From Thermodesulfobacteriota bacterium (GTDB taxonomy: Bacteria > Desulfobacterota > BSN033 > UBA1163): a stretch of 64,000 bases of DNA. The stretch covers positions 26,382 to 90,381 of the forward strand of contig JBHGBJ010000005.1 in the NCBI GenBank assembly GCA_041947025.1, read 5' to 3'. How positions within the stretch are numbered: position 1 is the first letter of the stretch; the number at the start of each line of letters is the position of its first letter. This document shows positions 52,012 through 64,000 of this stretch, piece after piece. Position numbers and translations under genes: made by a program. The notes under the pieces were generated by a model that saw only the letters and a program-made list of their open reading frames with translations, ran no database searches and was not told the origin of the DNA.

Positions 52012-53328
52012 TCAGCCCTGTACGAGGTGGTTTTTTCTCACTCCCTGAGCCTCGGATTTGTCTCCTGAAATAATTCCTTTGTTAAGGTAGATTGGCCGAC
52101 TGACCCTCCTCAACAGCGGGAGTTTCCGAGCAAACAGAAGACTTCCCCCCAGGGAGCAGATGCCGCCGATCAATACGGTTTGAGGTGCTCCAATGGCGTG
52201 TGCCAACATGCCCGACAGCAAGCTCCCGAAGGGCATCATCCCCATACCCGCCATGGTATAAAAACTCATCACCCTGCCGAGTTTATCCTCCTCCGAAAGA
52301 GTCTGCAGGACGATATTACTCGACGAGAACTGCACCATCATTCCAAACCCAACAACCATCATCAACGCCAAAGAGATCGGGAGAGCGCGTGAGAAAGAGA
52401 AGCCAATGAGACCGCTCCCAAAGACGATCGATGCGATGACGATGATTTTCCCCAGCCCCAAGACGCTTTTCCTTGAAGCAAGATAGTATGCCCCCGTGAG
52501 TGCCCCCACGCCCACGCTTGCTAAAAGAAAGCCAAGGGTTCGGGGGTCTCCGTGGAGAATATCTTTGGCAAATATCGGCATGAGTGTCGTGAATGGCATT
52601 CCCATGAAACTGACCAGCCCCACCAGCAACAACAGTGCTCGGATGGGTGGAAAACCGAAAGCATAGGAAAATCCTTCTCTCAATTTTTCCAAAACGTGGG
52701 GATGTTGTGTTTCTCTTCTCGTCACTCTTACCTTCATTGCTAACAGGGATGCAACGACAGCCAAAAAACTGAGACCATTGAGAAGAAAGCAGACTCCTTC
52801 TCCCACAGCGGCAATCAACAAACCTGCGAAAGAGGGCCCAACCAATCGGGCCCCATTGTTCATGGAAGAGTTCAAGGCAATGGCATTCCCGAGGTCTTCC
52901 CTTTTTTCAATCATGTCCACAACAAAAGCCTGACGGGCTGGCGTGTCAAGGGCATTGATCAAACCAAGAGCGATGCTCAAAGAGATGATATGCCAAACCA
53001 CGACCTTGCTGGTCAGAACGAGAACGGCTAAAGTCAAAGCCTGTATCATTGACAGGATTTGAGTCACGATAAGAATCCGGTGACGGTTCCATCGATCAAC
53101 GAACACACCGGCCAAGGGAGAAAATACAAACGTGGGAATTCGACTACTAAAACCGACCACGCCGAGAAGAAAAGCCGAACCGGTCAGCCGGTACACCAGC
53201 CAATTCATGGCCATTTGCTGCATCCAGGTACCGATGAGAGAGATGCCCTGGCCACCAAAGAAGAGCCGGTAATTTCGATGGATCAGGGAACGGAAGACGA
53301 GTTTCAAACCCTTTGGATCGGATTCCAT
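52012..53328 (-). CDS. MFS transporter (EntS/MFS_3-like)
   Basis: About 12 hydrophobic segments. N-terminal FRSLIHRNYRLFFGGQGISLIGTWMQ is typical of this MFS subgroup. I prefer ATG 53328 over 53388. Confidence 0.8.
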   Translation of the reverse strand: MESDPKGLKLVFRSLIHRNYRLFFGGQGISLIGTWMQQMAMNWLVYRLTGSAFLLGVVGFSSRIPTFVFSPLAGVFVDRWNRHRILIVTQILSMIQALTLAVLVLTSKVVVWHIISLSIALGLINALDTPARQAFVVDMIEKREDLGNAIALNSSMNNGARLVGPSFAGLLIAAVGEGVCFLLNGLSFLAVVASLLAMKVRVTRRETQHPHVLEKLREGFSYAFGFPPIRALLLLVGLVSFMGMPFTTLMPIFAKDILHGDPRTLGFLLASVGVGALTGAYYLASRKSVLGLGKIIVIASIVFGSGLIGFSFSRALPISLALMMVVGFGMMVQFSSSNIVLQTLSEEDKLGRVMSFYTMAGMGMMPFGSLLSGMLAHAIGAPQTVLIGGICSLGGSLLFARKLPLLRRVSRPIYLNKGIISGDKSEAQGVRKNHLVQG

Positions 53329-53559
53329 GAAGAGATCGTTGGCGCTTTCGAACGCCTCAGTATGAATTAAACAAGATGAATTAAACAAGAATACTCATTC
53401 GATGCCTGCAAAAAACGCTTTCAAATGTTATTCTAAAACATGAATTGGAGAACCGCTATCGCTGTACCTTCGATTCGCTTTGAGTCTACATGAACGCTGA
53501 TCCGGAAATGACTCTGGTTAGGTGTCCGAACGGAATACGGGGGAATGTCGCTATTGGTC

Positions 53560-53598: not shown

Positions 53599-53675
53599 CG
53601 GGGAGTAGCGCAGCCTGGTAGCGCGCTTGGTTCGGGACCAAGAGGCCGCCGGTTCAACTCCGGTCTCCCCGACCA
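53599..53675 (+). tRNA. tRNA-Pro (anticodon CGG)
   Basis: Hand-folded cloverleaf. Acceptor CGGGGAG/CTCCCCG, D-arm GCGC/GCGC, anticodon stem CTTGG/CCAAG with loop TTCGGGA (CGG, G37), T-arm GCCGG/CCGGT, encoded CCA. Confidence 0.9.
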
Positions 53676-53681
53676 GTTTTT
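53661..53681 (+). repeat. attL-like direct repeat (tRNA 3' end + 6 nt)
   Basis: CGGTCTCCCCGACCAGTTTTT, identical to 63687-63707. The flanking bases differ on both sides. Confidence 0.85.
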
Positions 53682-53924
53682 CCATCTCACTCCAACCTGC
53701 TATCCTTGCCCTCCGGCTTGAAAGGGGCCTCCTACAATGAGACCTACCCTTCTCCCTCATGAGTTTCCTTCCATTCGCCAGAGGTAAACCATTTAGAAGT
53801 TGCTCTAATTTCAGCTTTTTGGTATAAATAGGTCAACTTCCGGGGTGATTTGCATTCTTTAGAATTCTTTGGGCCATATTGGATTCCTTCTACAGGAAAA
53901 AGAGGCGTTCTTGGAGCCGTGAAT

Positions 53925-54245
53925 ATGCAACTGACCGACTACCACGCCAAATACTTCGCTCACGAGCTAACCAAACGATGCCCCTCCGACAGTACTGAGA
54001 AACTGGCCGGTGCTTTGGTTGGACTTCTATGCCTTCACCTCTTCACCGTGGAATCCCTCGACCAGGGGGAAAACTACCGCATCTTTTCCGGCGTAACCGA
54101 TCAGGGCGTACCCTTACAGGAGGAGGTTATCCGACGGTTCTTTACCTTATCGGTCAGAGTGGGGAATCCTTTACTTGGATCTCCTGAAGATTCAATCCTT
54201 GAGTCAGAAGTCAATGCACACCGGGCCGCGAACGTAGTCAATTAG
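53925..54245 (+). pseudogene. Remnant of an SNF2-type helicase gene (N-terminal ~30 aa fused to a C-terminal tail)
   Basis: MQLTDYHAKYFAHELTKRCPSDSTEKLAGAL is the N-terminus I associate with a widespread defence-island SNF2 helicase family. The ATPase motifs are entirely missing and only ~75 further residues follow. Confidence 0.45.
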
Positions 54246-54368
54246 ATCAAAGATAGCTTGAGAACATTCAGCAAACCCAATTCGCTGTGATTGCAACATA
54301 TTGTTTAATAAAGTGATATGTTGTATAGAGCCGTATTAGATTAGATTAAATCCAATCGAGGAAATCAA

Positions 54369-54584
54369 ATGAATCTAATCCTGCGGCAGGGTGTCGTAGA
54401 AATTCGCTGGAGGCAGAATCTCCACCTTCTGGATAACAAGCCGGTCGGGATATCCGGTTATGTCACCAGGTTGACAGAATCCCTTCCAAAGAAGCTTAAG
54501 GGATTATTACCCAGTCCAGAAGAACTTGAAGCTGTATTGAGCGAAACAAAGGTGGAAAGTAGTGGGCATGAAGGTCGAAGCTAA
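54369..54584 (+). pseudogene. Remnant resembling the C-terminal end of a DUF1016/YhcG-type PDDEXK nuclease
   Basis: ...KPVGISGYVTRLTESLPKKLKGLLPSPEELEAVL matches the characteristic tail of that family. The nuclease core is absent. Confidence 0.4.
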
Positions 54585-54619
54585 GATACTTTCGATCCCC
54601 TAGTATATTGGAGAAATAA

Positions 54620-55909
54620 ATGGCAGAACCAACGATCATTTGTCCGAAATGTAAGACTGAGATTAAGTTGACGGAATCGCTTGCAGCGCCACTCGTCGAG
54701 TCAATCCGCCGTGACTATGAGGAACGTTTGCTTCAAAAGGACACCGACATCGCCAAGCGGGAGGCTTTGCTTAGGCAGCGGGAAGAAATTTTGTCCAGGG
54801 CAAGAGAGAACATTGAGAGCCAAATCACTGAAAAACTTCGAGAGGAACGCACAAAAATTGCCTCAGAGGAAGCGCGGAAAGCAAAACTTGCTCTGGCGAT
54901 CGACATTGAGCAGAAAGATAAGGAGATTACCAACCTTCAAGACATTGTTAAACTGCGGGACGTGAAGCTCATAGAGGCGCAGAAAGCACAGGCTGAAGTC
55001 ATTCGAAAACAGCGCGAGCTCGATGATACCAAACGTGAGATGGAACTCACCATTGAAAAACGGATTCAAGAGGGGATCTCTACAGTGCGAGAACAGGCTC
55101 AGAGGGAGGCCGAGGACCAACTGAAACTCAAGGTAATGGAAAAGGAACAAACTATTGCCTCAATGCAGAAGCAGATTGAGGATCTTAAACGTAGATCTGA
55201 GCAAGGATCACAGCAGCTTCAAGGTGAGGTTCAAGAACTGGAGCTTGAAGCCCTGCTCCGGACAAACTTTCCACGTGATACAATCGAGCCCGTCCCGAAA
55301 GGAGAGCATGGCGGCGACGTAATACAAAGGGTCATCGGGCCACTGGGTCAGACCTGTGGGACGATTTTGTGGGAGTCCAAACGTACAAAGAACTGGAGTG
55401 ATGGATGGCTCACTAAGCTCCGTGAAGACCAACGAACCGCGAAGGCGGAAGTCGCCGTGATCGTCAGCCGGGCACTCCCGAAGGAAGTCCAATCGTTTGA
55501 CCTAATAGATGGAGTGTGGGTAACCCATCCAAAAGCCGCGCTTCCCGTGGCTGTGAGCCTTCGCCATACTCTGATTGAGGTGACGTGCGCTCGTCAGGCA
55601 ATCCAAGGACAGGAAACAAAGATGGAGATAATATACCAGTATCTTACTGGACCGCGCTTCCGTCAACGCATCCAGGCCATCGTCGAAGCCTTCTCGTCTA
55701 TGCATGAGGATCTCGAAAAAGAGAAGAAAGTCATCACTAAACAGTGGGCGAAGCGTGAGGAGCAAATAGAACGGGTAATGCAGGCCACTGTCGGAATGTA
55801 CGGTGATTTACAAGGAATTGCAGGGAAGACACTGCAAGAAATTGAGGGCCTGGAATTCCTTGCCCTAGAGGATTCGACTTCCGGCGAGGAAGAAGCTGGC
55901 AGTAAGTAG
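54620..55909 (+). CDS. DUF2130-like protein: CxxC N-terminus, long coiled coil, C-terminal nuclease-like domain
   Basis: 429 aa. GGAG RBS. IICPKCKTEIKL, then an E/K/R/Q-rich helical region to about aa 205, then GEHGGDVIQRV...GTILWESKRTKNWSDGWLTKLREDQ (D...ExK pattern). Confidence 0.75.
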   Translation: MAEPTIICPKCKTEIKLTESLAAPLVESIRRDYEERLLQKDTDIAKREALLRQREEILSRARENIESQITEKLREERTKIASEEARKAKLALAIDIEQKDKEITNLQDIVKLRDVKLIEAQKAQAEVIRKQRELDDTKREMELTIEKRIQEGISTVREQAQREAEDQLKLKVMEKEQTIASMQKQIEDLKRRSEQGSQQLQGEVQELELEALLRTNFPRDTIEPVPKGEHGGDVIQRVIGPLGQTCGTILWESKRTKNWSDGWLTKLREDQRTAKAEVAVIVSRALPKEVQSFDLIDGVWVTHPKAALPVAVSLRHTLIEVTCARQAIQGQETKMEIIYQYLTGPRFRQRIQAIVEAFSSMHEDLEKEKKVITKQWAKREEQIERVMQATVGMYGDLQGIAGKTLQEIEGLEFLALEDSTSGEEEAGSK

Positions 55910-55946
55910 TTCTTAATGCCGATAGCCTGCTCTTAAGGAGGGTGAG

Positions 55947-57809
55947 ATGAGAATCGTCCAACTTAAGGTATCCAATTTCCGTTGTTTCAAAGATGAGACC
56001 GTTGTTAGCCTTGACAATCTCGTTCTATTCATCGGTAAGAACGATTCTGGGAAATCCTCCCTGCTTGATGCGATGGATATCTTTTTTAACGAAGTACCTG
56101 AACAAGATGATGTTTGTGTTCATGGAAGTGACAAGAAAGTCAGTATTACATGCGTGTTTGACGAGCTTCCTACAGAATTGGTAATTGATGAACAGCATCC
56201 AACGAATCTGTCAGCGGAATATCTTCTAAATCGGGATGGGAGGTTAGAAGTTGTTAAGGTATTCAACTGTTCTGGCTCGGGAAAGGTAAGGGCGGCAAGT
56301 GTGTTTGCACGAGCAAAACACCCAACCGCTGACAAGTTCAATGACCTGCTAACTCTCACTAATGCAAAATTAAAACAAAGGGCAAAAGAGTTAGGTGTTG
56401 ATGTTACCAACGTGAATCAAACAATCAACACTGAACTTAGGCGCGCTATCTGGGCACAGGCTCCTGATCTTCAGTGCAAAGAAATTGACATCGAACTAAA
56501 ATCCGAAACGGCTGAGAAGATTTGGGAGCAATTGAAGAAGCATCTTCCTGTCTTCGCCCTTTTTAAATCCGACCGACCTAGCACGGATCAAGACGCGGAA
56601 GCTCAAGATCCGATGAAATCGGCTATTAAGGAAGCAATTAAAGGGCAAGAGATATTGCTCAATGATCTTGCAGAAAAGGTGAAAAAGGAGGTTCAAGAGA
56701 TTGCAAATCGTACCGTGGAAAAAATCCGAGAAATGGCTCCTGATTTGGCGAATCAACTAACTCCTCGGGTGACAAATAAGAATTGGGAAAGTCTTTTCTC
56801 GGTGAGCCTTACAGGAGATGAAGACATTCCAATCAATAAGCGTGGTAGTGGCACGAGACGCTTGGTACTTCTTAACTTTTTCCGAGCAAAGGCAGAGAGG
56901 GATGCCGAAGGAAAAGGGGCAGGTATCATCTATGCGATAGAAGAGCCCGAAACTAGTCAGCATCCAAATAACCAGAAAATGATCATCGAAGCTTTTGATG
57001 ACCTGGCAAGCCGGACCGGTTGCCAAGTATTCTTAACAACCCATACCCCAACGTTAGCACGGAAATTTTCTCAAACAGCACTTCGATATGTCACATGGAA
57101 AGACGGACAACCCATCGTCTATGAAGGACGCAATGATGAAACCCTTGCCGAAATTGCTAACTCGCTGGGCGTTCTCCCGGACCATAACATTAGGACGTTT
57201 TTTGGCGTAGAAGGAAGAAATGATATCACATTTCTTACAACTGTGTCCAAAATACTCCACGATATGGGGGAAGATGTACCCAACCTTGGAGAAGTAGAAG
57301 ACAACGGCCACTTGGTCTTTGTTCCGCTGGGTGGAAGTAGCCTAGACTTGTGGGTATCAAGGCTCCGGGGATTCAATAGGCCGGAATTCTATCTTATGGA
57401 TAGGGATACGTGTCCACCAGAAAAGCCCAGATACTACAACATTGCTGAAGAATTGGGTAAGCGTACGAACTGCACTGTCTGGACAACCGGCCGAAAAGAG
57501 CTGGAGAACTACATCCATCCCGATCTTATTAAGGCCAGCTACCCCGGATATTCTGGTGTTGGTAATGAATTTGAAGATGTGCCCATGCTTTTAGCCCAAG
57601 CGGTCCACGAGGCCAGTGGTAGCGGTCAAACCTGGGCGGATATCCTTTCTGATCCTGAGAAGTTAAGCAAGAAAATTTCGAACGCCAAACGCCGCTTATG
57701 TACGGAATTCGTATCCAAGATGACATCGGATTTGCTTGCCAAAATTGATCTCAATAAAGAGGTTATAGCTTGGTTAAAGGCAATCGGTGTGGCATTGCAA
57801 GCTGCATAA
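55947..57809 (+). CDS. OLD-family nuclease: ABC-type ATPase fused to TOPRIM domain
   Basis: 620 aa. AAGGAGG RBS. Walker A GKNDSGKSS, Walker B IYAIEEPETSQHP, H-loop FLTTHTP. C-terminal FGVEGRNDITF ... FVPLGGSS ... YLMDRDT (TOPRIM Glu and DxD). Confidence 0.8.
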   Translation: MRIVQLKVSNFRCFKDETVVSLDNLVLFIGKNDSGKSSLLDAMDIFFNEVPEQDDVCVHGSDKKVSITCVFDELPTELVIDEQHPTNLSAEYLLNRDGRLEVVKVFNCSGSGKVRAASVFARAKHPTADKFNDLLTLTNAKLKQRAKELGVDVTNVNQTINTELRRAIWAQAPDLQCKEIDIELKSETAEKIWEQLKKHLPVFALFKSDRPSTDQDAEAQDPMKSAIKEAIKGQEILLNDLAEKVKKEVQEIANRTVEKIREMAPDLANQLTPRVTNKNWESLFSVSLTGDEDIPINKRGSGTRRLVLLNFFRAKAERDAEGKGAGIIYAIEEPETSQHPNNQKMIIEAFDDLASRTGCQVFLTTHTPTLARKFSQTALRYVTWKDGQPIVYEGRNDETLAEIANSLGVLPDHNIRTFFGVEGRNDITFLTTVSKILHDMGEDVPNLGEVEDNGHLVFVPLGGSSLDLWVSRLRGFNRPEFYLMDRDTCPPEKPRYYNIAEELGKRTNCTVWTTGRKELENYIHPDLIKASYPGYSGVGNEFEDVPMLLAQAVHEASGSGQTWADILSDPEKLSKKISNAKRRLCTEFVSKMTSDLLAKIDLNKEVIAWLKAIGVALQAA

Positions 57810-57826
57810 AGTGGGAAAGAAGCTAA

Positions 57827-59539
57827 ATGACTAAGAAAACCAAACTTGAACTGACATGGATTGGGAAGGAGAACCGGCCACGGCTGGAGCCGCGCATCCT
57901 TCTTGAAGATCCGGAAAAATCTTATCACGCTCCACACCGATTGACAGACCATGACTTTTTCGACAACCGCCTTATCTTCGGAGATAATCTCCTCGCGCTT
58001 AAAGCGCTGGAACAGGAATTTACGGGAAAGATCAAGTGTATTTATATCGATCCTCCGTATAATACCGGTTCGGCGTTCGAACATTACGAGGATGGCATCG
58101 AACATTCCATGTGGTTGTGCCTCATGCGTGATCGAATGGAGATGCTTCGTCGATTACTGACGAGTGATGGTAGTGTGTGGATATCCATCGACGACAATGA
58201 GTGTCATTACTTCAAGGTCATGATGGACGAGATATTTGGGCGGCAGAACTTTGTCGCAACTATCATTTGGCAAAAGGTGTTCACTGTAAAAAACTCCGCC
58301 CGCCACTTTTCCGATATGCATGACTATATTTTGGTCTACGCAAGAGACATTTCGCGATGGGAGCGCAACCTCCTGCCGAGGACTGAAGCATTAGATAGCA
58401 CTTACTCGAACCCCGACATTGATCCACGTGGAGCATGGACGACCAATGCAGTCCAGGCAAGGAATTATTACAGCCAAGGCTCTTACGAAATAAGATCACC
58501 GAGTGGCCGTGTATTCCTCCCCCCCAAAGGGACATACTGGAGAATTTCGGAAGAGACCTTTAAAGAACTCGATTCCGATGGCCGTGTTTGGTGGGGTAGG
58601 AGCGGCAACAGCATTCCGCGAATCAAGAAGTTTCTTTCAGAAGCAAAACAAGGCGTGGTGCCAGCTACGTTTTGGGCACATGAGGAGTGCGGGACTAACG
58701 CCGAGGCGAAGACCGAGATGCGATCTTTGATTGCCGACGTTGAAGAGACTGAGATGTTCTTGACGCCAAAGCCTGAACGATTGCTGAAACGCGTCTTGGA
58801 TCTGGCAAGCAACCCTGGTGATTGGGTGCTTGACTCTTTCGCAGGTTCCGGTACGGCTGGTGCAGTAGCCCACAAGATGGGGCGGCGATGGATCATGGTG
58901 GAGTTGGGGGAACACTGTCACACGCACATTATCCCACGTATGAAGAAGGTTATTGATGGTACGGACAAGGGCGGGATCACAGAATCCGTCGGCTGGAAGG
59001 GGGGTGGCGGATTTCGGTACTACCGGCTGGGTCCTTCGTTGCTTGAGAAAGACCGGTTTGGCAATTGGATCATCAACAAAAAGTATAATGCCGCTATGCT
59101 TGCAGAGGCTATCTGCAAGCTGGAGGGGTTTACGTACGCGCCAAGTGAGGAGGTTTATTGGCAGCATGGCCATTCCACTGAGAATGATTTCATCTACGTC
59201 ACCACGCAGACGCTGACCCGTGAACAGTTTCAGAGACTTTCGGACGAGGTTGGCGAGGGCCGGAGCTTACTTGTCATGTGTGGCGCGTTTCGTGTGAAAA
59301 ACCTTGATGACTTCCCTAATCTTACCGTCAAGAAGATTCCCAAGGCTGTGATGAGCCGTTGCGAGTGGGGAAAGGACGACTACAGCCTCGAAATTAGAAA
59401 CCTTCAGATGAAGGAGATGGAACCGGCTGAGGAAAAAGATGAACTAGCGCCGAATGCCAGTGATAAAAGCGCACCCAGCCCAAAACAGGCCACTCTTTTT
59501 GACCTGACCGGACGGAAAGGCGGGAAGAAAAATGACTGA
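57827..59539 (+). CDS. mod: Type III R-M DNA methyltransferase (Mod), beta-class N6A/N4C MTase
   Basis: Motif IV IYIDPPYNTGSAF precedes motif I LDSFAGSGTAGAVA. 570 aa. Followed in the operon by a Res helicase-nuclease. Confidence 0.85.
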   Translation: MTKKTKLELTWIGKENRPRLEPRILLEDPEKSYHAPHRLTDHDFFDNRLIFGDNLLALKALEQEFTGKIKCIYIDPPYNTGSAFEHYEDGIEHSMWLCLMRDRMEMLRRLLTSDGSVWISIDDNECHYFKVMMDEIFGRQNFVATIIWQKVFTVKNSARHFSDMHDYILVYARDISRWERNLLPRTEALDSTYSNPDIDPRGAWTTNAVQARNYYSQGSYEIRSPSGRVFLPPKGTYWRISEETFKELDSDGRVWWGRSGNSIPRIKKFLSEAKQGVVPATFWAHEECGTNAEAKTEMRSLIADVEETEMFLTPKPERLLKRVLDLASNPGDWVLDSFAGSGTAGAVAHKMGRRWIMVELGEHCHTHIIPRMKKVIDGTDKGGITESVGWKGGGGFRYYRLGPSLLEKDRFGNWIINKKYNAAMLAEAICKLEGFTYAPSEEVYWQHGHSTENDFIYVTTQTLTREQFQRLSDEVGEGRSLLVMCGAFRVKNLDDFPNLTVKKIPKAVMSRCEWGKDDYSLEIRNLQMKEMEPAEEKDELAPNASDKSAPSPKQATLFDLTGRKGGKKND

Positions 59540-60575
59540 TCATCTTCCGGAAAAAAGGGGACCTTCATCAGAGATTCTATTCTATCAAACCGAAGACGGC
59601 CGGAATCGAATCGAAGTGCATCTGGAGAATGAAACGGTTTGGTTAACTCAAGCCTCAATGGCGGAACTCTTTCAAACTACTCCGCAAAACATCACACTTC
59701 ACCTCAAGAACATCTACGGAGAAGGCGAACTCCATGAGGCAGCAACCTGTAAGGATTACTTACAAGTTCAAAATGAGGGTTCTCGTCAAGTCCGGAGAAG
59801 CAGACGGTTTTATAACCTTGAAGCCATCATCGCTGTGGGCTACCGTGTGAAGTCTCATCGCGGCACGCAGTTCCGAAGATGGGCAACCGAGCGGTTGCGT
59901 GAGTATCTGGTCAAGGGCTTCGCGATGGATGATGAGCGGCTCAAGGAAGGTAGGAACATCGGGGCGGATTATTTTGATGAACTGCTTGAGCGCATTCGTG
60001 ACATCCGTGCATCCGAGAAACGTTTCTACCAGAAAATCAGGGATATCTACAAATTGGCCATTGACTACGACCCGGAGGCGGAGGAAACAAAAGAGTTTTT
60101 CCAGATCGTGCAGAACAAACTCCACTGGGCAATTACCGGCAAGACGGCAGCGGAGTTGATTGCGGAAAGGGCGGATTCTTCCAAACCGAACATGGGGCTA
60201 ACGAGTTGGAAGGGCATTAAAGTTCGCAGAACCGATGTCGTTGTTGCAAAGAATTACCTGAATATCGAGGAGATTGGTGAACTTAACAGGATCGTCGTCA
60301 TGTATCTTGATTATGCCGAGGATCAGGCTCACCGTCGAAAACCCCTTTACATGCGTGATTGGCGAGAAAAAATTGATGCATTTTTGAAATTTAACGAGCG
60401 TGCCATCCTGGGGGATGCAGGAAAAGTGTCCATGGAAGTTGCCAAGGCCCTGGCTACAGAGGAATATGACAAATTTAACCAGCGCCGCCTGGCCGAAGAA
60501 GCGGGCAAGGAAGAAGAGGAATTTGAGAAGATCGCGGAGCAGATTGAACGAAAAGGCCGGAGGAGGAAGAAATGA
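59532..60575 (+). CDS. rhuM: RhuM-family protein inserted between mod and res
   Basis: ILFYQTEDGRNRIEVHLENETVWLTQASMAELFQTTPQNITLHLKNIY...AVGYRVKSHRGTQFRRWATERLREYLVKGF is the RhuM signature. It overlaps mod by 8 nt and res by 4 nt. Confidence 0.8.
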   Translation: MTDHLPEKRGPSSEILFYQTEDGRNRIEVHLENETVWLTQASMAELFQTTPQNITLHLKNIYGEGELHEAATCKDYLQVQNEGSRQVRRSRRFYNLEAIIAVGYRVKSHRGTQFRRWATERLREYLVKGFAMDDERLKEGRNIGADYFDELLERIRDIRASEKRFYQKIRDIYKLAIDYDPEAEETKEFFQIVQNKLHWAITGKTAAELIAERADSSKPNMGLTSWKGIKVRRTDVVVAKNYLNIEEIGELNRIVVMYLDYAEDQAHRRKPLYMRDWREKIDAFLKFNERAILGDAGKVSMEVAKALATEEYDKFNQRRLAEEAGKEEEEFEKIAEQIERKGRRRKK

Positions 60576-63280
60576 ACGACTCCTACGTCAATACGATCGC
60601 CAATCGCCTGAGCCTGCGTCGACCTCAACGCATATCGCTTGAGATCCTCCATAGGATTTGTGATCTCATCCCTCTTGAGAAAAACGCGGACATCGTGCAG
60701 GCACTCCGGGTAATTCAGTCGGAATTTCCTTCGGTCTCTGATTTTGAGCGCGATTTTCCATCCCTTTGCTTTGCACTCGCAACCGGAGTTGGCAAAACCC
60801 GCCTCATGGGAGCCTTCATTTCATACCTCTTCAAGACCAGGGATATCCGGCATTTCTTTGTGCTTGCACCTAACCTCACCATTTACAACAAGCTGACCAC
60901 GGATTTTACCCCCAATACGCCTAAGTATGTCTTTCAGGGCATCGCGGAGTTCGCCGTTACACCGCCAGAGATCATCACCGGCGACAACTACGAAACCGGC
61001 CGCGGTATCCGACAAAAAGGTTACCTGCCGGGGATAGAATGGGAAACCCCGATCCATATCAACATCTTTAACATCTCCAAGATCACGAGCACGGAAACAC
61101 CGAAAGGAGCCGTCAAAAGTAATATCCCGCGATTCCGGCGCCTCCAAGAATACATTGGCCAGAGCTATTTTGAATACCTTTCGAATCTGGACGATTTGGT
61201 GCTCCTGATGGACGAATCGCACCGGTACAGGGCGTCAGCGGGTATGAAAGCGATCAGCGAGCTTACACCGATCCTGGGACTTGAGCTTACGGCAACGCCC
61301 CAGGTGGAAAAAGGTGGCACCCAGGAACCGTTCAGGAACGTCATCTATAGCTATCCTCTTTCAAATGCAATGGCAGACGGATTTGTTAAAGAGCCCGCCG
61401 TGGCGACCCGTGAGAATTTCGATATCCGTAACTACGATGATGCTGGATTGGAGCGGTTAAAATTAGAGGATGGGGTACGCATCCATGAAAACACCAAAGT
61501 GGAGCTGGAAATTTACGCCCGGGAGAATAGTAGGCCCATTGTGAAGCCGTTCCTGCTGGTCATTGCGCGCGATACGGACCACGCTAATTCCCTTCTGAAG
61601 ATAATCGAAGATGAAACATTCTTTGAGGGCCGTTACAAGGGAAAGGTTATCCAGGTCCATTCTAAGCAGAGCGGGGAGGAGAGGGATGAAACCATCGAGC
61701 AGCTGATCAACGTGGAGAAACCCCAAAATCCGACTGAAATCGTCATTCACGTAAACATGCTGAAAGAAGGGTGGGATGTTACGAACCTCTATACCATCGT
61801 TCCGCTCCGGGCTGCAAACTCGAAAACGCTTGTGGAGCAGTCGATTGGCCGGGGGCTACGCCTTCCTTATGGAAAGAGGACGGAAGTGGGTGCGGTAGAC
61901 CGTCTGACCATCGTCTCCCACGATAAGTTCCAGGAGATCGTGGATTATGCCAACAGCCCGGATTCCATCATCCGGGGAGGCTTGAAGGTTATCCACATCA
62001 CCGACGAGCGAAACAAGGTCTATGTAGCCGAACCGGAGATCATAAGCCGAGTTTCGGAGGGCTTATCCACCTACGCCGGGTCAGAAAGCACGGGAAAACA
62101 GACAGCGCTCTTTGAGAACCCGAAAGAGCAGGAGGCAGCAAAGGCTACACTTGAAGTTATCCGGAGAGAATTCGAGCGTTTGCCGCGTTCCTCTGATCTG
62201 ACTAAACCTGAAATTCAGGAAAAGATTGTCGACAAGGTGAAGGAGATCATAACTCCTGCCCAGAAGGAGCTGGAAGGCATCGCTGAAAAGGTGGACGTGG
62301 CCAGGGTGGTCGCCTCTACGATTACCCTTCGCAATGAGCTATCCATTGATATCCCACGCATCATCGTCCAGCCGGTCGGCGAGGTAACTCGGGGGTACCG
62401 GGAATTCGGTCTCGATTTGTCCTCCATTCATCTCTTGCCGGTAGATAACGAAATTCTTATCCAGGAACTGCACCGGCGAGAGCAACACCGGCTGATGAGC
62501 GGCACCGGCATCCTACCGGAAGAACGGTTTGAAGACTACCTTGTCCGGGGTCTCATCGATTTTAATGACATTTGCTACGACGATCATGCGGAATTACTTT
62601 ATAAACTGGCCGGACAGGTTGTGGCGCACCTCCGATCCTACCTCAACAGCGAAGAAGAGGTGGTCAATGTCCTGCAATACCACCAGCAGGCCTTAGTGAA
62701 CCTGGTCCATGCGCAGATGCAAGAGCATTACGAAGAAAAAGCAACCTCCTTTGAGGCACACGTGAGCAAAGGATTCACAACGCTCCGGCCTAACAACTAT
62801 TCCGCTCCTGCCGGTGAATCCGAACGTGACTTCCGGGCACCGGTATCTGATAAACATGATATCTGCAAGATGCTTTTTAGCGGCTTCAGAAAGTGTCTGT
62901 ATCGAATTCAAAAATTCGACTCCGATTCGGAGCGCCGATTTGCCGTGATCCTTGAGAACGACAAGGAAGTGATGAAGTGGTTCAAGCCAGCCAAAGGGAA
63001 CCTCCAGATTCACTACACCGGCGATGCGTCCTACGAACCGGACTTCGTAGTGGAGGCAAAATCGACCAAATTTCTTTGTGAGGCAAAGAGCGCTGCCGAA
63101 ATGACAGACAAAGAAGTGCAGGCCAAGGCCAGGGCTGCCCTGGAATGGTGCAAGAACGCAACCGCTCATGAACTGAAACACGGCGGAAAGTCCTGGTCAT
63201 ACTTGCTCGTTCCACATGACATCATCTCAGACAACAAGACATTGCAGGGATTGGCCGCAAGCTGTACGTATAGCGAATAG
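60572..63280 (+). CDS. res: Type III restriction enzyme Res subunit (SF2 helicase + PD-(D/E)xK nuclease)
   Basis: 902 aa. Motif I LATGVGKTRL, motif II LLMDESHRY, motif VI QSIGRGLRL. C-terminal YEPDFVVEAKSTKFLCEAKS nuclease motif. Confidence 0.85.
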   Translation: MNDSYVNTIANRLSLRRPQRISLEILHRICDLIPLEKNADIVQALRVIQSEFPSVSDFERDFPSLCFALATGVGKTRLMGAFISYLFKTRDIRHFFVLAPNLTIYNKLTTDFTPNTPKYVFQGIAEFAVTPPEIITGDNYETGRGIRQKGYLPGIEWETPIHINIFNISKITSTETPKGAVKSNIPRFRRLQEYIGQSYFEYLSNLDDLVLLMDESHRYRASAGMKAISELTPILGLELTATPQVEKGGTQEPFRNVIYSYPLSNAMADGFVKEPAVATRENFDIRNYDDAGLERLKLEDGVRIHENTKVELEIYARENSRPIVKPFLLVIARDTDHANSLLKIIEDETFFEGRYKGKVIQVHSKQSGEERDETIEQLINVEKPQNPTEIVIHVNMLKEGWDVTNLYTIVPLRAANSKTLVEQSIGRGLRLPYGKRTEVGAVDRLTIVSHDKFQEIVDYANSPDSIIRGGLKVIHITDERNKVYVAEPEIISRVSEGLSTYAGSESTGKQTALFENPKEQEAAKATLEVIRREFERLPRSSDLTKPEIQEKIVDKVKEIITPAQKELEGIAEKVDVARVVASTITLRNELSIDIPRIIVQPVGEVTRGYREFGLDLSSIHLLPVDNEILIQELHRREQHRLMSGTGILPEERFEDYLVRGLIDFNDICYDDHAELLYKLAGQVVAHLRSYLNSEEEVVNVLQYHQQALVNLVHAQMQEHYEEKATSFEAHVSKGFTTLRPNNYSAPAGESERDFRAPVSDKHDICKMLFSGFRKCLYRIQKFDSDSERRFAVILENDKEVMKWFKPAKGNLQIHYTGDASYEPDFVVEAKSTKFLCEAKSAAEMTDKEVQAKARAALEWCKNATAHELKHGGKSWSYLLVPHDIISDNKTLQGLAASCTYSE

Positions 63281-63686
63281 GATCAGTTGTCAATGTGAGG
63301 AGACGCAAGATCCATTCCGGCCTTTTGAATGGTTTATCCTGAGGACCCTCATAATACTGTATTTCCTGTGGGGGCGGACCAAGGCAAGGGTTTGAATCTT
63401 CAACAACGTGATCTTGAAGACCTTGAGGAAGCGCAAAGCCTGACATGCTTACCAGAGATCGACAAGGACTTTTCTACTTCCGCAAAATCAAGATTCACCC
63501 CTTCAACGGCTGTTGAAGAGACGATTGTCCTGGTTAACAAGATCTCTCGCTGTTTTGAATCTCTTAGGTAAGGGTTTGTATTGATAAGAGCATCCTTCCG
63601 CATGATTTTTCATAACATATTCTGAAAGCTCAGTCCATCTAATCTACGACCTTTGATACCTCGTGCGAGCATCGTGGCCTGGCAAT

Positions 63687-63707
63687 CGGTCTCCCCGACC
63701 AGTTTTT
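63687..63707 (+). repeat. attR-like direct repeat
   Basis: Exact copy of 53661-53681. It ends 3 nt before the stop codon (63711-63713) of the next minus-strand gene. Confidence 0.85.
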
Positions 63708-63710
63708 ATC

Positions 63711-64000
63711 TTATCCAAAAAGCACCTTCCACCACTTCTCCATCACTTTTTTTCTCAGGACCGGATCCGATTCATTGACCTCCGGGAATTGGTCTCTCCA
63801 TTCATAGGGTCTCGTCGCATCAATGACGACTCTTGAATTGAAGCACTCATCCTTCTTTTTCCACGGAGGGATGATCGGATCAAGAGGAGTGCTCAGGCTT
63901 CTCTTGACAAGGTGGATATCGTTTTCCGGATCGGAACGGGTGCACATAGCCCACAAAACTTCCTGGGTATTTGACGGATCGACATCCTCATCCACGACGA
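63711..64000 (-). CDS. Second UbiD-family decarboxylase, C-terminal end only (N-terminus beyond window)
   Basis: ...DEDVDPSNTQEVLWAMCTRSDPENDIHLV... parallels MVVDPDINIYSTDDLMWALATRVD of the 1196..2740 protein. The frame is open to the window end. Confidence 0.75.
   Translation of the reverse strand, partial: VVDEDVDPSNTQEVLWAMCTRSDPENDIHLVKRSLSTPLDPIIPPWKKKDECFNSRVVIDATRPYEWRDQFPEVNESDPVLRKKVMEKWWKVLFG

Follow-up and report, generated by a model that had tools for sequence, protein, structure and literature searches.

A 10-kb island at tRNA-Pro(CGG) with a Type III restriction operon and no integrase gene, probably the remains of an integrated element, in an uncultured soil Thermodesulfobacteriota bacterium

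A 10-kb island lies between a tRNA-Pro(CGG) gene and a UbiD-family gene in a 64-kb stretch of DNA (the window) and is bounded by an exact 21-bp direct repeat. It probably represents the remains of a horizontally acquired element that had integrated at tRNA-Pro, decayed and lost its integrase, while its defence operon was kept. This reading builds on what was observed: the repeat, the tRNA gene, the cargo, the absence of a recombinase, a deviant composition, relatives free of the island, and the occurrence of the cargo cassette elsewhere. We regard the island as akin to a cis-mobilisable element (CIME), i.e. as a real but ordinary decayed genomic island of a kind already known; it opens no new mechanism.

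The single tRNA gene of the window, an intact tRNA-Pro(CGG) at 53599–53675 on the plus strand, was identified by ARAGORN and scored 65 bits with the Rfam tRNA model; the Rfam search gave no match beyond the tRNA. The 21-mer CGGTCTCCCCGACCAGTTTTT occurs exactly twice in the window. The left copy (53661–53681, an attL-like core) consists of 15 nt of the tRNA 3' end followed by GTTTTT, as the first-pass annotation had described. The right, attR-like copy (63687–63707), a displaced tRNA fragment in the same direction, matches it exactly, and neither shows decay. The count remains at two when three mismatches are allowed, 100 shuffles gave no match, and between 53400 and 64000 the 21-mer is the sole exact long direct repeat. 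Downstream of the right copy follow ATC and then TTA, the stop of the minus-strand UbiD_C gene, which confirms the earlier placement of the copy 3 nt outside that coding sequence. A tRNA gene with a displaced fragment is the signature used by Islander for tDNA integration, and the exact, correctly oriented repeat of a tRNA end plus 6 nt is read as a specific product of this process (PMC4383910). In the soil runs X3 and X11, the same tRNA end with GTTTTT occurs in other organisms, and there the resemblance to the window breaks off at 53682, which is the start of the island.

The left flank is of housekeeping character (gmk, yicC, dxs, ispA, xseA, queD, folE2, ThyA-like) and contains, upstream of the tRNA, a gene for an MFS transporter (52012–53388, minus strand; Pfam MFS_3/MFS_1). 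The right flank comprises the last 95 codons of a UbiD-family decarboxylase (63711–63998, minus strand; Pfam UbiD_C), the full gene being present on contig L138 (the genome's own protein, P0002, has 479 residues). The island had been expected to differ from its flanks in composition. This holds for tetranucleotide usage, by which it is the most deviant 10 kb (distance 0.211 versus 0.134 ± 0.021, maximum 0.179, for 44 equal-sized flank windows), but not for GC content, which equals that of the flanks.

The two repeat copies are separated by 10,005 bp, which hold a promoter-like element, two gene remnants and five intact plus-strand genes. For the left arm (53682–53786, 105 nt), no relative and no coding signal were found: there was no blastn match in any fetched locus and no Pfam match in six frames. 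It is followed by the conserved element (53787–53850, plus strand) with TTGCTC, a 17-nt spacer, TGGTATAAA and then the invariant AGGTCAACTTCCGGGGTGATT, which, judged from its hexamers, may be a promoter. Two copies of this element, 84% identical, are found in each of six other loci (L149, L150, L152–L155), and it is also present on another contig of the source run, X1; IMG/VR contains no exact match to it. The first remnant (53925–54245, plus strand) derives from an SNF2-family helicase gene. It joins the N-terminal 33 residues to a C-terminal tail of about 70 residues and lacks the ATPase motifs; residues 1–33 match the N-termini of SNF2-rel_dom or Helicase_C proteins (phmmer, 1.84 billion representatives). 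The second (54369–54584, plus strand) is the C-terminal tail of a PDC-S02-type protein, matching only the final 35–40 positions of the PADLOC PDC-S02 models; within it, positions 54419–54565 share 86% identity with a segment, not called as a gene, that precedes the cassette in L149 and L151. The two gene remnants noticed earlier near the tRNA are confirmed.

At the other end, the right arm (63281–63686, 406 nt) holds an unsupported 80-aa open reading frame (63329–63571, plus strand) and, on the minus strand, a 13-bp hairpin with a T-run (63524–63495). No Pfam, NCBIfam or PADLOC match was obtained for it, and its relatives in run X3, about 91% identical and located in a different context, carry substitutions without third-position bias; for these two reasons the right arm is probably non-coding. 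The plasmids of PLSDB yielded no match to the island by megablast and none to the right arm by blastn.

All five long open reading frames between the repeats share the plus strand, and each matches a known family strongly, in agreement with the nuclease and restriction–modification (R-M) cargo and the uniform orientation first reported. The first gene (54620–55909, plus strand) encodes a DUF2130 protein (Pfam PF09903, 2.4e-78), whose translation suggests a CxxC pattern, a long coiled coil and a PD-(D/E)XK-type domain (GGDV...ESK). The family is listed as PD-(D/E)XK with function unknown (PMC3424549). The second (55947–57809, plus strand) encodes a putative OLD-family ABC-ATPase nuclease of 620 residues (Pfam AAA_15, 4.7e-78; PADLOC AriA, Old and GajA), which matches the OLD structure PDB 6p74 (2.7e-09) and GajA. 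In its C-terminus, Toprim-like motifs (VEGRND...DRD) were recognized by eye, without an HMM match to Toprim. Then follow the genes for the Type III R-M methyltransferase Mod (57827–59539, plus strand; PADLOC MTase_III, 6e-227; Pfam N6_N4_Mtase), a RhuM-family protein (59532–60575, plus strand; Pfam Virulence_RhuM, 9.6e-119; PADLOC PDC-S05, 1.6e-151) and the restriction subunit Res (60572–63280, plus strand; PADLOC REase_III, 1.1e-233; Pfam ResIII, Helicase_C and RE_endonuc). The rhuM gene overlaps mod by 8 nt and res by 4 nt, and the order mod–rhuM–res also occurs in L149, L151, L163, L181 and L189. Res homologues of equal length are 89–96% identical, and the target-recognition region of Mod (approximately 58276–58816) is replaced in every relative, as seen from gaps in the blastn matches.

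Mod and Res are predicted to be the two subunits of a Type III system encoded in one operon. Their clustering with RhuM/PDC-S05 and an OLD/AriA/GajA-like ATPase in DNA of deviant composition is that of a defence island. Phage structural, conjugation, relaxase and T4SS genes were not found; the only domains are DUF2130, AAA_15, N6_N4_Mtase, RhuM and ResIII/Helicase_C/RE_endonuc. DUF2130 and OLD as a conserved pair was rejected, the two genes being adjacent in L189/L190 and apart in three DUF2130 and three OLD loci on viral contigs.

The five genes form a cassette of 8.7 kb (boundaries 54573–63271) which is 82–84% identical in L189/L190 and L149–L156, in contexts other than tRNA genes and with no integrase there. 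A Res gene with 93% nucleotide identity is located on contig L148 together with a GH108 lysozyme gene and a gene for a 3,848-residue helicase-like protein. The upstream slot of the cassette is swappable, holding either AIPR or DUF2130 plus OLD. The presence of the cassette away from tRNAs in other genomes argues that it spreads by recombination, independently of att sites, and points to a modular unit.

Relatives were analysed for an empty site. Two of them, L058 and L147, have UbiD proteins with 91.6% and 91.2% identity, respectively (about 90% at the nucleotide level over the 290 UbiD nucleotides that the window covers). In both, 239–245 bp separate the UbiD stop from a tRNA-Pro(CGG) in the same orientation; the tRNA end is present once and the island is missing. 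The same 10 kb in all relatives, which had been named as an outcome that would count against an island, was thus not found, and the predicted single tRNA end was; a clean empty site, also predicted, was seen in no relative. All nine UbiD relatives keep 11–35 conserved nt right after the stop (ATCCTGCTTTG...), whereas the window has ATC alone before the repeat, so that integration has to be combined with either an additional deletion or another ancestral spacing. The spacer of L058 and L147 has no counterpart in the window, and the T-stem of the window's tRNA differs from that of L058 by compensatory changes. What follows UbiD varies through rearrangement in nearly all relatives (tRNA-Pro, tRNA-Arg-Ser-Ser, an amidohydrolase gene or other), which leaves the synteny evidence thin. 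Via the left flank, the best MFS relatives (one genome per species) are at most 69% identical, with no tRNA nearby and no shared neighbours. Against the preferred explanation stand the lack of a clean empty site, the thin synteny, the T-stem changes, the unchanged GC content, a displaced fragment with only 15 nt of tRNA and a left junction that runs through a shared tRNA node. A parent element carrying both an integrase and this att core was not found either, and the 21-mer is absent from IMG/VR.

It is the variability of this region and the behaviour of the cassette that bring in an origin of the repeat other than by an integrase. The right copy might be what is left of a second tRNA-Pro, or might have arisen through illegitimate or homologous recombination when the cassette was inserted into a rearrangement-prone tRNA-Pro–UbiD spacer. 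The cassette does move without att sites or tRNAs, microhomology deletions occur in its family, at least four neighbour types among the nine relatives mark the region after UbiD as a rearrangement hotspot, and the missing conserved sequence after the UbiD stop is not predicted by simple integration. We nevertheless consider such an origin improbable. An exact, oriented 21-bp repeat of a tRNA end is what tDNA integration specifically produces (PMC4383910). The repeat also bounds more than the cassette, as homology to the other loci breaks off 891 bp short of the left copy and 415 bp short of the right one. Finally, nothing resembling the remainder of a second tRNA lies to the left of the right copy: a longer, decayed tRNA similarity there was rejected as chance level, 793 of 2000 shuffles reaching its alignment score.

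The two junctions differ in their assembly support. One independent Logan contig of the source run, L138, spans the right junction together with the right repeat. At the left junction, the k=31 Logan graph passes through a tRNA node common to several organisms, so that this join rests on matching depth (45.6 versus 48) and on the original assembly. In the source run, the path from left flank to island leads through nodes (53599–53657) with several entries and exits and a summed depth of 58–124, as might be expected if the left flank and the island plus UbiD came from different organisms or loci and had been joined through the common tRNA sequence. Such a chimera is very improbable, because the depth of the left flank (45.6) agrees with the values for the island and UbiD contig (48, 43.8, 41.5 and 42.5), the minor branch of the graph reaches only about 11–13x, and relatives independently place tRNA-Pro(CGG) beside UbiD. 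Even in a chimera, the tRNA fragment beside UbiD would remain.

The absence of a recombinase between the repeats, already stated in the first-pass annotation, was borne out by six-frame HMM searches, in which neither PF00589 (tyrosine integrase) nor any other recombinase matched inside the island. The two non-coding ends gave no Pfam match at E≤10 in six frames, and the remaining stop-free segments of at least 45 residues in all six frames gave no recombinase or other Pfam match at E≤1. Mobility was assessed in the contigs of the source run, which drop rare variants; they contain no joints from excision, skipping or circle formation. In a raw-read run of the same study the organism is absent. 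Contig depth in the source run is even across flank and island (42–48), and this, together with the missing excision joints, suggests that the island is presently immobile; its integrase was presumably lost.

An island of this structure could also still be functional. CIMEs have lost integration and transfer genes, keep attL and attR, and are mobilized after accretion with an incoming element (PMC5704250). With intact attL and attR usable by an integrase in trans, here a tRNA-Pro-specific one from a sibling ICE, IME or prophage that either resides at another place in the genome or arrives later, the island could be excised or co-mobilized by accretion. Its two identical 21-bp copies would suit this, and its tRNA-Pro variant, shared by many abundant soil organisms, is a common target. 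But the source run, within the limits of contigs that drop rare variants, contains neither an excision or circle joint nor an empty-site contig. Nothing in the 64-kb window was recognized as a helper element, and the 21-mer, looked for as a viral attP, has no exact match among the 2.9 million viral contigs of IMG/VR. Continued mobility in trans is therefore unlikely. Quite improbable, too, is a wider reading in which the island would be an integrase-less 'defence satellite', its perfectly conserved att cores serving a tRNA-Pro-specific integrase from another locus. Inside it, a conserved promoter-like leader, a swappable front slot, a Mod specificity region that can likewise be swapped, RhuM and Res would make up a plug-and-play operon, which uncultured Syntrophaceae-type (Thermodesulfobacteriota) bacteria of soil and peat and their mobile elements would exchange. 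If this were true, DUF2130 plus OLD could be an undescribed two-gene add-on to Type III restriction.

On the preferred reading of a decayed tRNA-Pro-integrated element, site-specific recombination, presumably via an integrase, would have brought the element into the 3' end of tRNA-Pro(CGG). To our knowledge, tyrosine-integrase chemistry applies in every known tRNA-targeting case. As the element would have carried its own copy of the tRNA end, the tRNA gene would have been rebuilt at the left junction, and the original 15-nt end with 6 flanking nt pushed to the right junction beside UbiD. Genes for integration and excision would later have been lost, leaving a promoter-like element and two gene stumps in the tRNA-proximal 0.9 kb. 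What persists would be a plus-strand defence operon for a DUF2130 PD-(D/E)XK-type protein, a putative OLD-family ATPase–Toprim nuclease and the Type III pair, with rhuM probably translationally coupled between mod and res. The island appears to be fixed and single-copy in the source population.

The island is a well-delimited case of defence genes in an uncultured soil anaerobe, linked to a tRNA but without mobility genes. Its restriction and nuclease cassette seems still to be exchanged between genomes by recombination while the mobility genes of the island itself are gone. For annotation, it represents 10 kb of acquired DNA missed by island finders that require an integrase. The cassette boundaries (54573–63271) and the swapped Mod specificity region are useful for studies of Type III diversification.

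Among known systems, the OLD-family protein resembles the Class 1 OLD-family nucleases, GajA (Gabija) and AriA (PARIS), in having an AAA_15 ABC-ATPase followed by Toprim-like motifs in one chain, although its Toprim was recognized from motifs rather than by HMM. In contrast to Gabija and PARIS, no GajB, UvrD-type, AriB or retron partner adjoins it. R-M operons with embedded toxin genes (RhuM or DOC, PMC3710099; PDC-S05) likewise have RhuM between mod and res, with adjoining nuclease genes and a Mod specificity region that differs between relatives. Unlike these, the island operon is headed by DUF2130 and OLD-family genes, a pairing kept only in the close relatives L189/L190 and missing from six more distant loci.

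The tDNA islands of Islander (Hudson, Lau & Williams 2015, PMC4383910; Williams 2002, NAR 30:866) pair an intact tRNA at one border with a directly oriented, displaced piece of its 3' end at the opposite border. The island shares both features, with the fragment outside a conserved coding sequence, and likewise lies downstream of the tRNA with cargo unrelated to the flanks. It differs in that the displaced fragment reaches only 15 nt into the tRNA, an active parent element was not found, and no tyrosine integrase gene is inside, so that it would not pass Islander's integrase filter. The host, an uncultured Syntrophaceae-type soil bacterium (Thermodesulfobacteriota), is unlike that of the Streptococcus CIMEs such as CIME19258 and CIME302 (PMC5704250), and for the island neither a cognate ICE or IME nor any sign of accretion or of a tandem structure was found. 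As in these CIMEs, attL/attR flanks are located at the 3' end of a conserved gene; the identical copies are kept, recombinase, relaxase and T4SS domains are absent, and with the integration and transfer modules lost, adaptive cargo, often R-M genes, has been retained.

The window holds a single tRNA gene, that for tRNA-Pro(CGG), at 53599–53675 on the plus strand (Rfam score 65 bits). The 21-mer CGGTCTCCCCGACCAGTTTTT is present in two exact copies, at 53661–53681 and 63687–63707, and this pair is the sole exact long direct repeat of the island region; no further match was found in the window, even with three mismatches allowed, and none in 100 shuffles. The left copy consists of the final 15 nt of the tRNA gene, including CCA, plus GTTTTT. 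After the right copy come ATC and the stop codon of a UbiD-family gene on the minus strand. tRNA calling and repeat search thus confirm this junction as it was located and described in the first-pass annotation. On contigs from two other soil runs (X3 and X11), the 3' part of the tRNA gene and GTTTTT are identical, and the likeness to the window ends at 53682, where the island starts. Integrase-mediated insertion into tRNA genes is defined by this signature, a tRNA gene accompanied by a displaced fragment of it (PMC4383910), and we consider a decayed, fixed tRNA-Pro island the probable reading of this locus.

The tRNA gene shares its 5' 49 nt with the closest relatives and differs from them in the T-stem (53640–53660; 1766–1786 of the metagenome contig L058) by compensatory changes, GCCGG/CCGGT versus GGGAG/CTCCT. 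The variant seen in the window abounds in several further soil metagenomes.

The 13 kb on the left side of the island carry housekeeping genes (gmk, yicC, FtsJ-type methyltransferase, dxs, ispA, xseA, glycerate-kinase-like, queD, folE2, ThyA-like and MFS transporter); close syntenic relatives of the MFS gene were not found. The UbiD fragment led to L058 in the JGI metagenomes, whose UbiD is 94% identical at the amino acid level over the last 95 residues and 91.6% over its full length, with ∼90% nucleotide identity across the 290 nt of the gene inside the window. On L058, tRNA-Pro(CGG) lies 245 bp from the UbiD stop codon in the same orientation as in the window. The arrangement recurs on an independent contig from ENA (L147), and both contigs carry a single copy of the tRNA end. 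They are island-free versions of the window locus, though not clean empty sites: in all nine members of the UbiD 90% cluster, 11–35 conserved nt (ATCCTGCTTTGCTTCA...) directly follow the stop codon, which the window lacks, and the 239-nt spacer of L058 has no match within the window. The proposed empty-site comparison therefore yielded tRNA-Pro next to UbiD without the island, but not the clean junction.

In nearly every one of nine UbiD relatives (84–92% amino acid identity) the DNA just past the stop codon is rearranged. The breakpoints lie 11–35 nt from the stop (window 63708–63711; L058, L139–L147), followed by tRNA-Pro in L058 and L147, tRNA-Arg-Ser-Ser in L141–L143 and L145, an amidohydrolase gene in L139, L140 and L144, and something else in L146. 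As the neighbours differ, the spot is a rearrangement hotspot. For the window, one has to posit either a further deletion or an ancestral spacing unlike that of the relatives. Such a hotspot would also suit a repeat of non-integrase origin, an explanation that we regard as improbable. Composition, named earlier as a further check, sets the island apart in tetranucleotide usage (distance 0.211, against 0.134 ± 0.021 and a maximum of 0.179 for 44 flank windows of equal size), but not in GC content (0.489 versus 0.502 in the flank).

Six-frame translations of both non-coding island ends gave no Pfam match at E ≤ 10, and the other stop-free segments of at least 45 residues in the six frames of the island (n = 98) gave none at E ≤ 1, which bears out the claim that no recombinase lies between the repeats. 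[quoted passage not shown] An island-skipping joint would read ...CCGACCAGTTTTT followed directly by ATCTTATCC..., and a circle would join 63686 to 53682; neither joint occurs among the contigs of the source run X1 (SRR29307520), and we think a CIME unlikely. The strain was found in this run only. Logan contig depth there is 45.6 for the left flank and 48, 43.8, 41.5 and 42.5 for the island and UbiD. The right junction lies within one contig (L138), and the left one is reached via tRNA nodes common to other organisms (summed depth 58–124); because these nodes are shared, its support is depth matching plus the original assembly. An assembly chimera could enter at these nodes, and with such depths and a continuous right junction we hold it to be very improbable. 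The interpretation as a tRNA-Pro island, probably immobilised, is supported, with caveats on the unclean empty site and the shared tRNA nodes of the left junction.

Next to the left repeat copy, an arm of 105 nt, for which no relative was found, precedes a promoter-like element of 64 nt (53787–53850) and two gene remnants. The element (∼55–64 nt) consists of TTGCTA, 17 nt, TGGTATAAA and then the invariant AGGTCAACTTCCGGGGTGATT. Further copies are found in L149 (3216–3274 and 4454–4517) and on another source-sample contig; in loci of peat Thermodesulfobacteriota it precedes the R-M cassette and also various small ORFs. That the 20 nt following the −10 box are invariant points to an operator or a leader RNA. 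The first remnant (53925–54245, 106 codons) combines the N-terminus of an SNF2-family helicase (residues 1–33) with its C-terminal tail, and ATPase motifs are absent. The 33-residue N-terminus (MQLTDYHAKYFAHELTKRCPSDS...) starts most of the 150 matches listed of 471, most of which are short (43–200 residues), and several proteins of 117–129 residues have the same N-terminus plus tail architecture. The pattern is a hint that the helicase gene has repeatedly undergone internal deletion, although some cases may be contig-edge artefacts. The second remnant (54369–54584, 71 codons) matches only the last 35–40 positions of the PADLOC PDC-S02 models. The right arm, the 406 nt that follow Res, has no family match. 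Relatives ∼91% identical to part of it (63395–63646) occur in run X3, where they lie at the end of a contig of 4.7 kb whose left context differs; their substitutions are not biased towards any codon position. On the minus strand, a 13-bp hairpin and its T-run (63524–63495) may now serve as a terminator of UbiD transcripts.

The five intact island genes are all on the plus strand and tightly spaced. They encode a DUF2130 protein (Pfam 2.4e-78; CxxC, coiled coil and D...ESK motif), a family entered as PD-(D/E)XK in PMC3424549; an OLD/GajA/AriA-type AAA_15 ATPase of 620 residues with VEGRND...DRD Toprim-like motifs; Type III Mod (PADLOC 6e-227); RhuM (9.6e-119), whose gene shares 8 nt with mod and 4 nt with res; and Type III Res (PADLOC 1.1e-233).

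Many metagenomes from wetlands, peat and soil contain homologues of Res with 89–96% identity. Two loci (L189, L190) contain the full DUF2130-OLD-Mod-RhuM-Res cassette at ∼82% nucleotide identity, with homology ending sharply at window positions 54573 and 63271 (L189 510–9212); both loci lack tRNA genes and the 21-mer, and their flanks are unrelated to the window. The peat Thermodesulfobacteriota loci L149–L156, in which no tRNA or integrase was found, have Mod-RhuM-Res (84% nucleotide identity), the PDC-S02 tail and the promoter-like element in common with the window, with an AIPR gene in place of DUF2130 and OLD. L150 and L149 are strain variants that are 99.98% identical apart from a clean deletion of 4,238 bp at 2 nt of microhomology (L150 8934 versus L149 4695–8932), which removed AIPR and Mod and left RhuM and Res. 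In L148, Mod-Res occurs without RhuM (Res 93% identical at the nucleotide level), on a contig that also bears a GH108 lysozyme gene and a helicase-like gene of 3,848 residues. The middle, target-recognition region of Mod (∼58276–58816) is replaced in every relative, and DUF2130-OLD adjacency was not seen in six more distant loci. The five-gene cassette is evidently a discrete unit that moves on its own. The segment enclosed by the repeats exceeds it by 891 bp at the left end and by 415 bp at the right, consistent with an older integrative scaffold that has a modular defence operon as its present interior.

Modest interest attaches to the cassette, for its modularity and conserved leader, and to the front slot taken by DUF2130/OLD. 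R-M operons with embedded RhuM-like genes are an already described pattern (PMC3710099), and the decayed tRNA island is a kind of object already well known.
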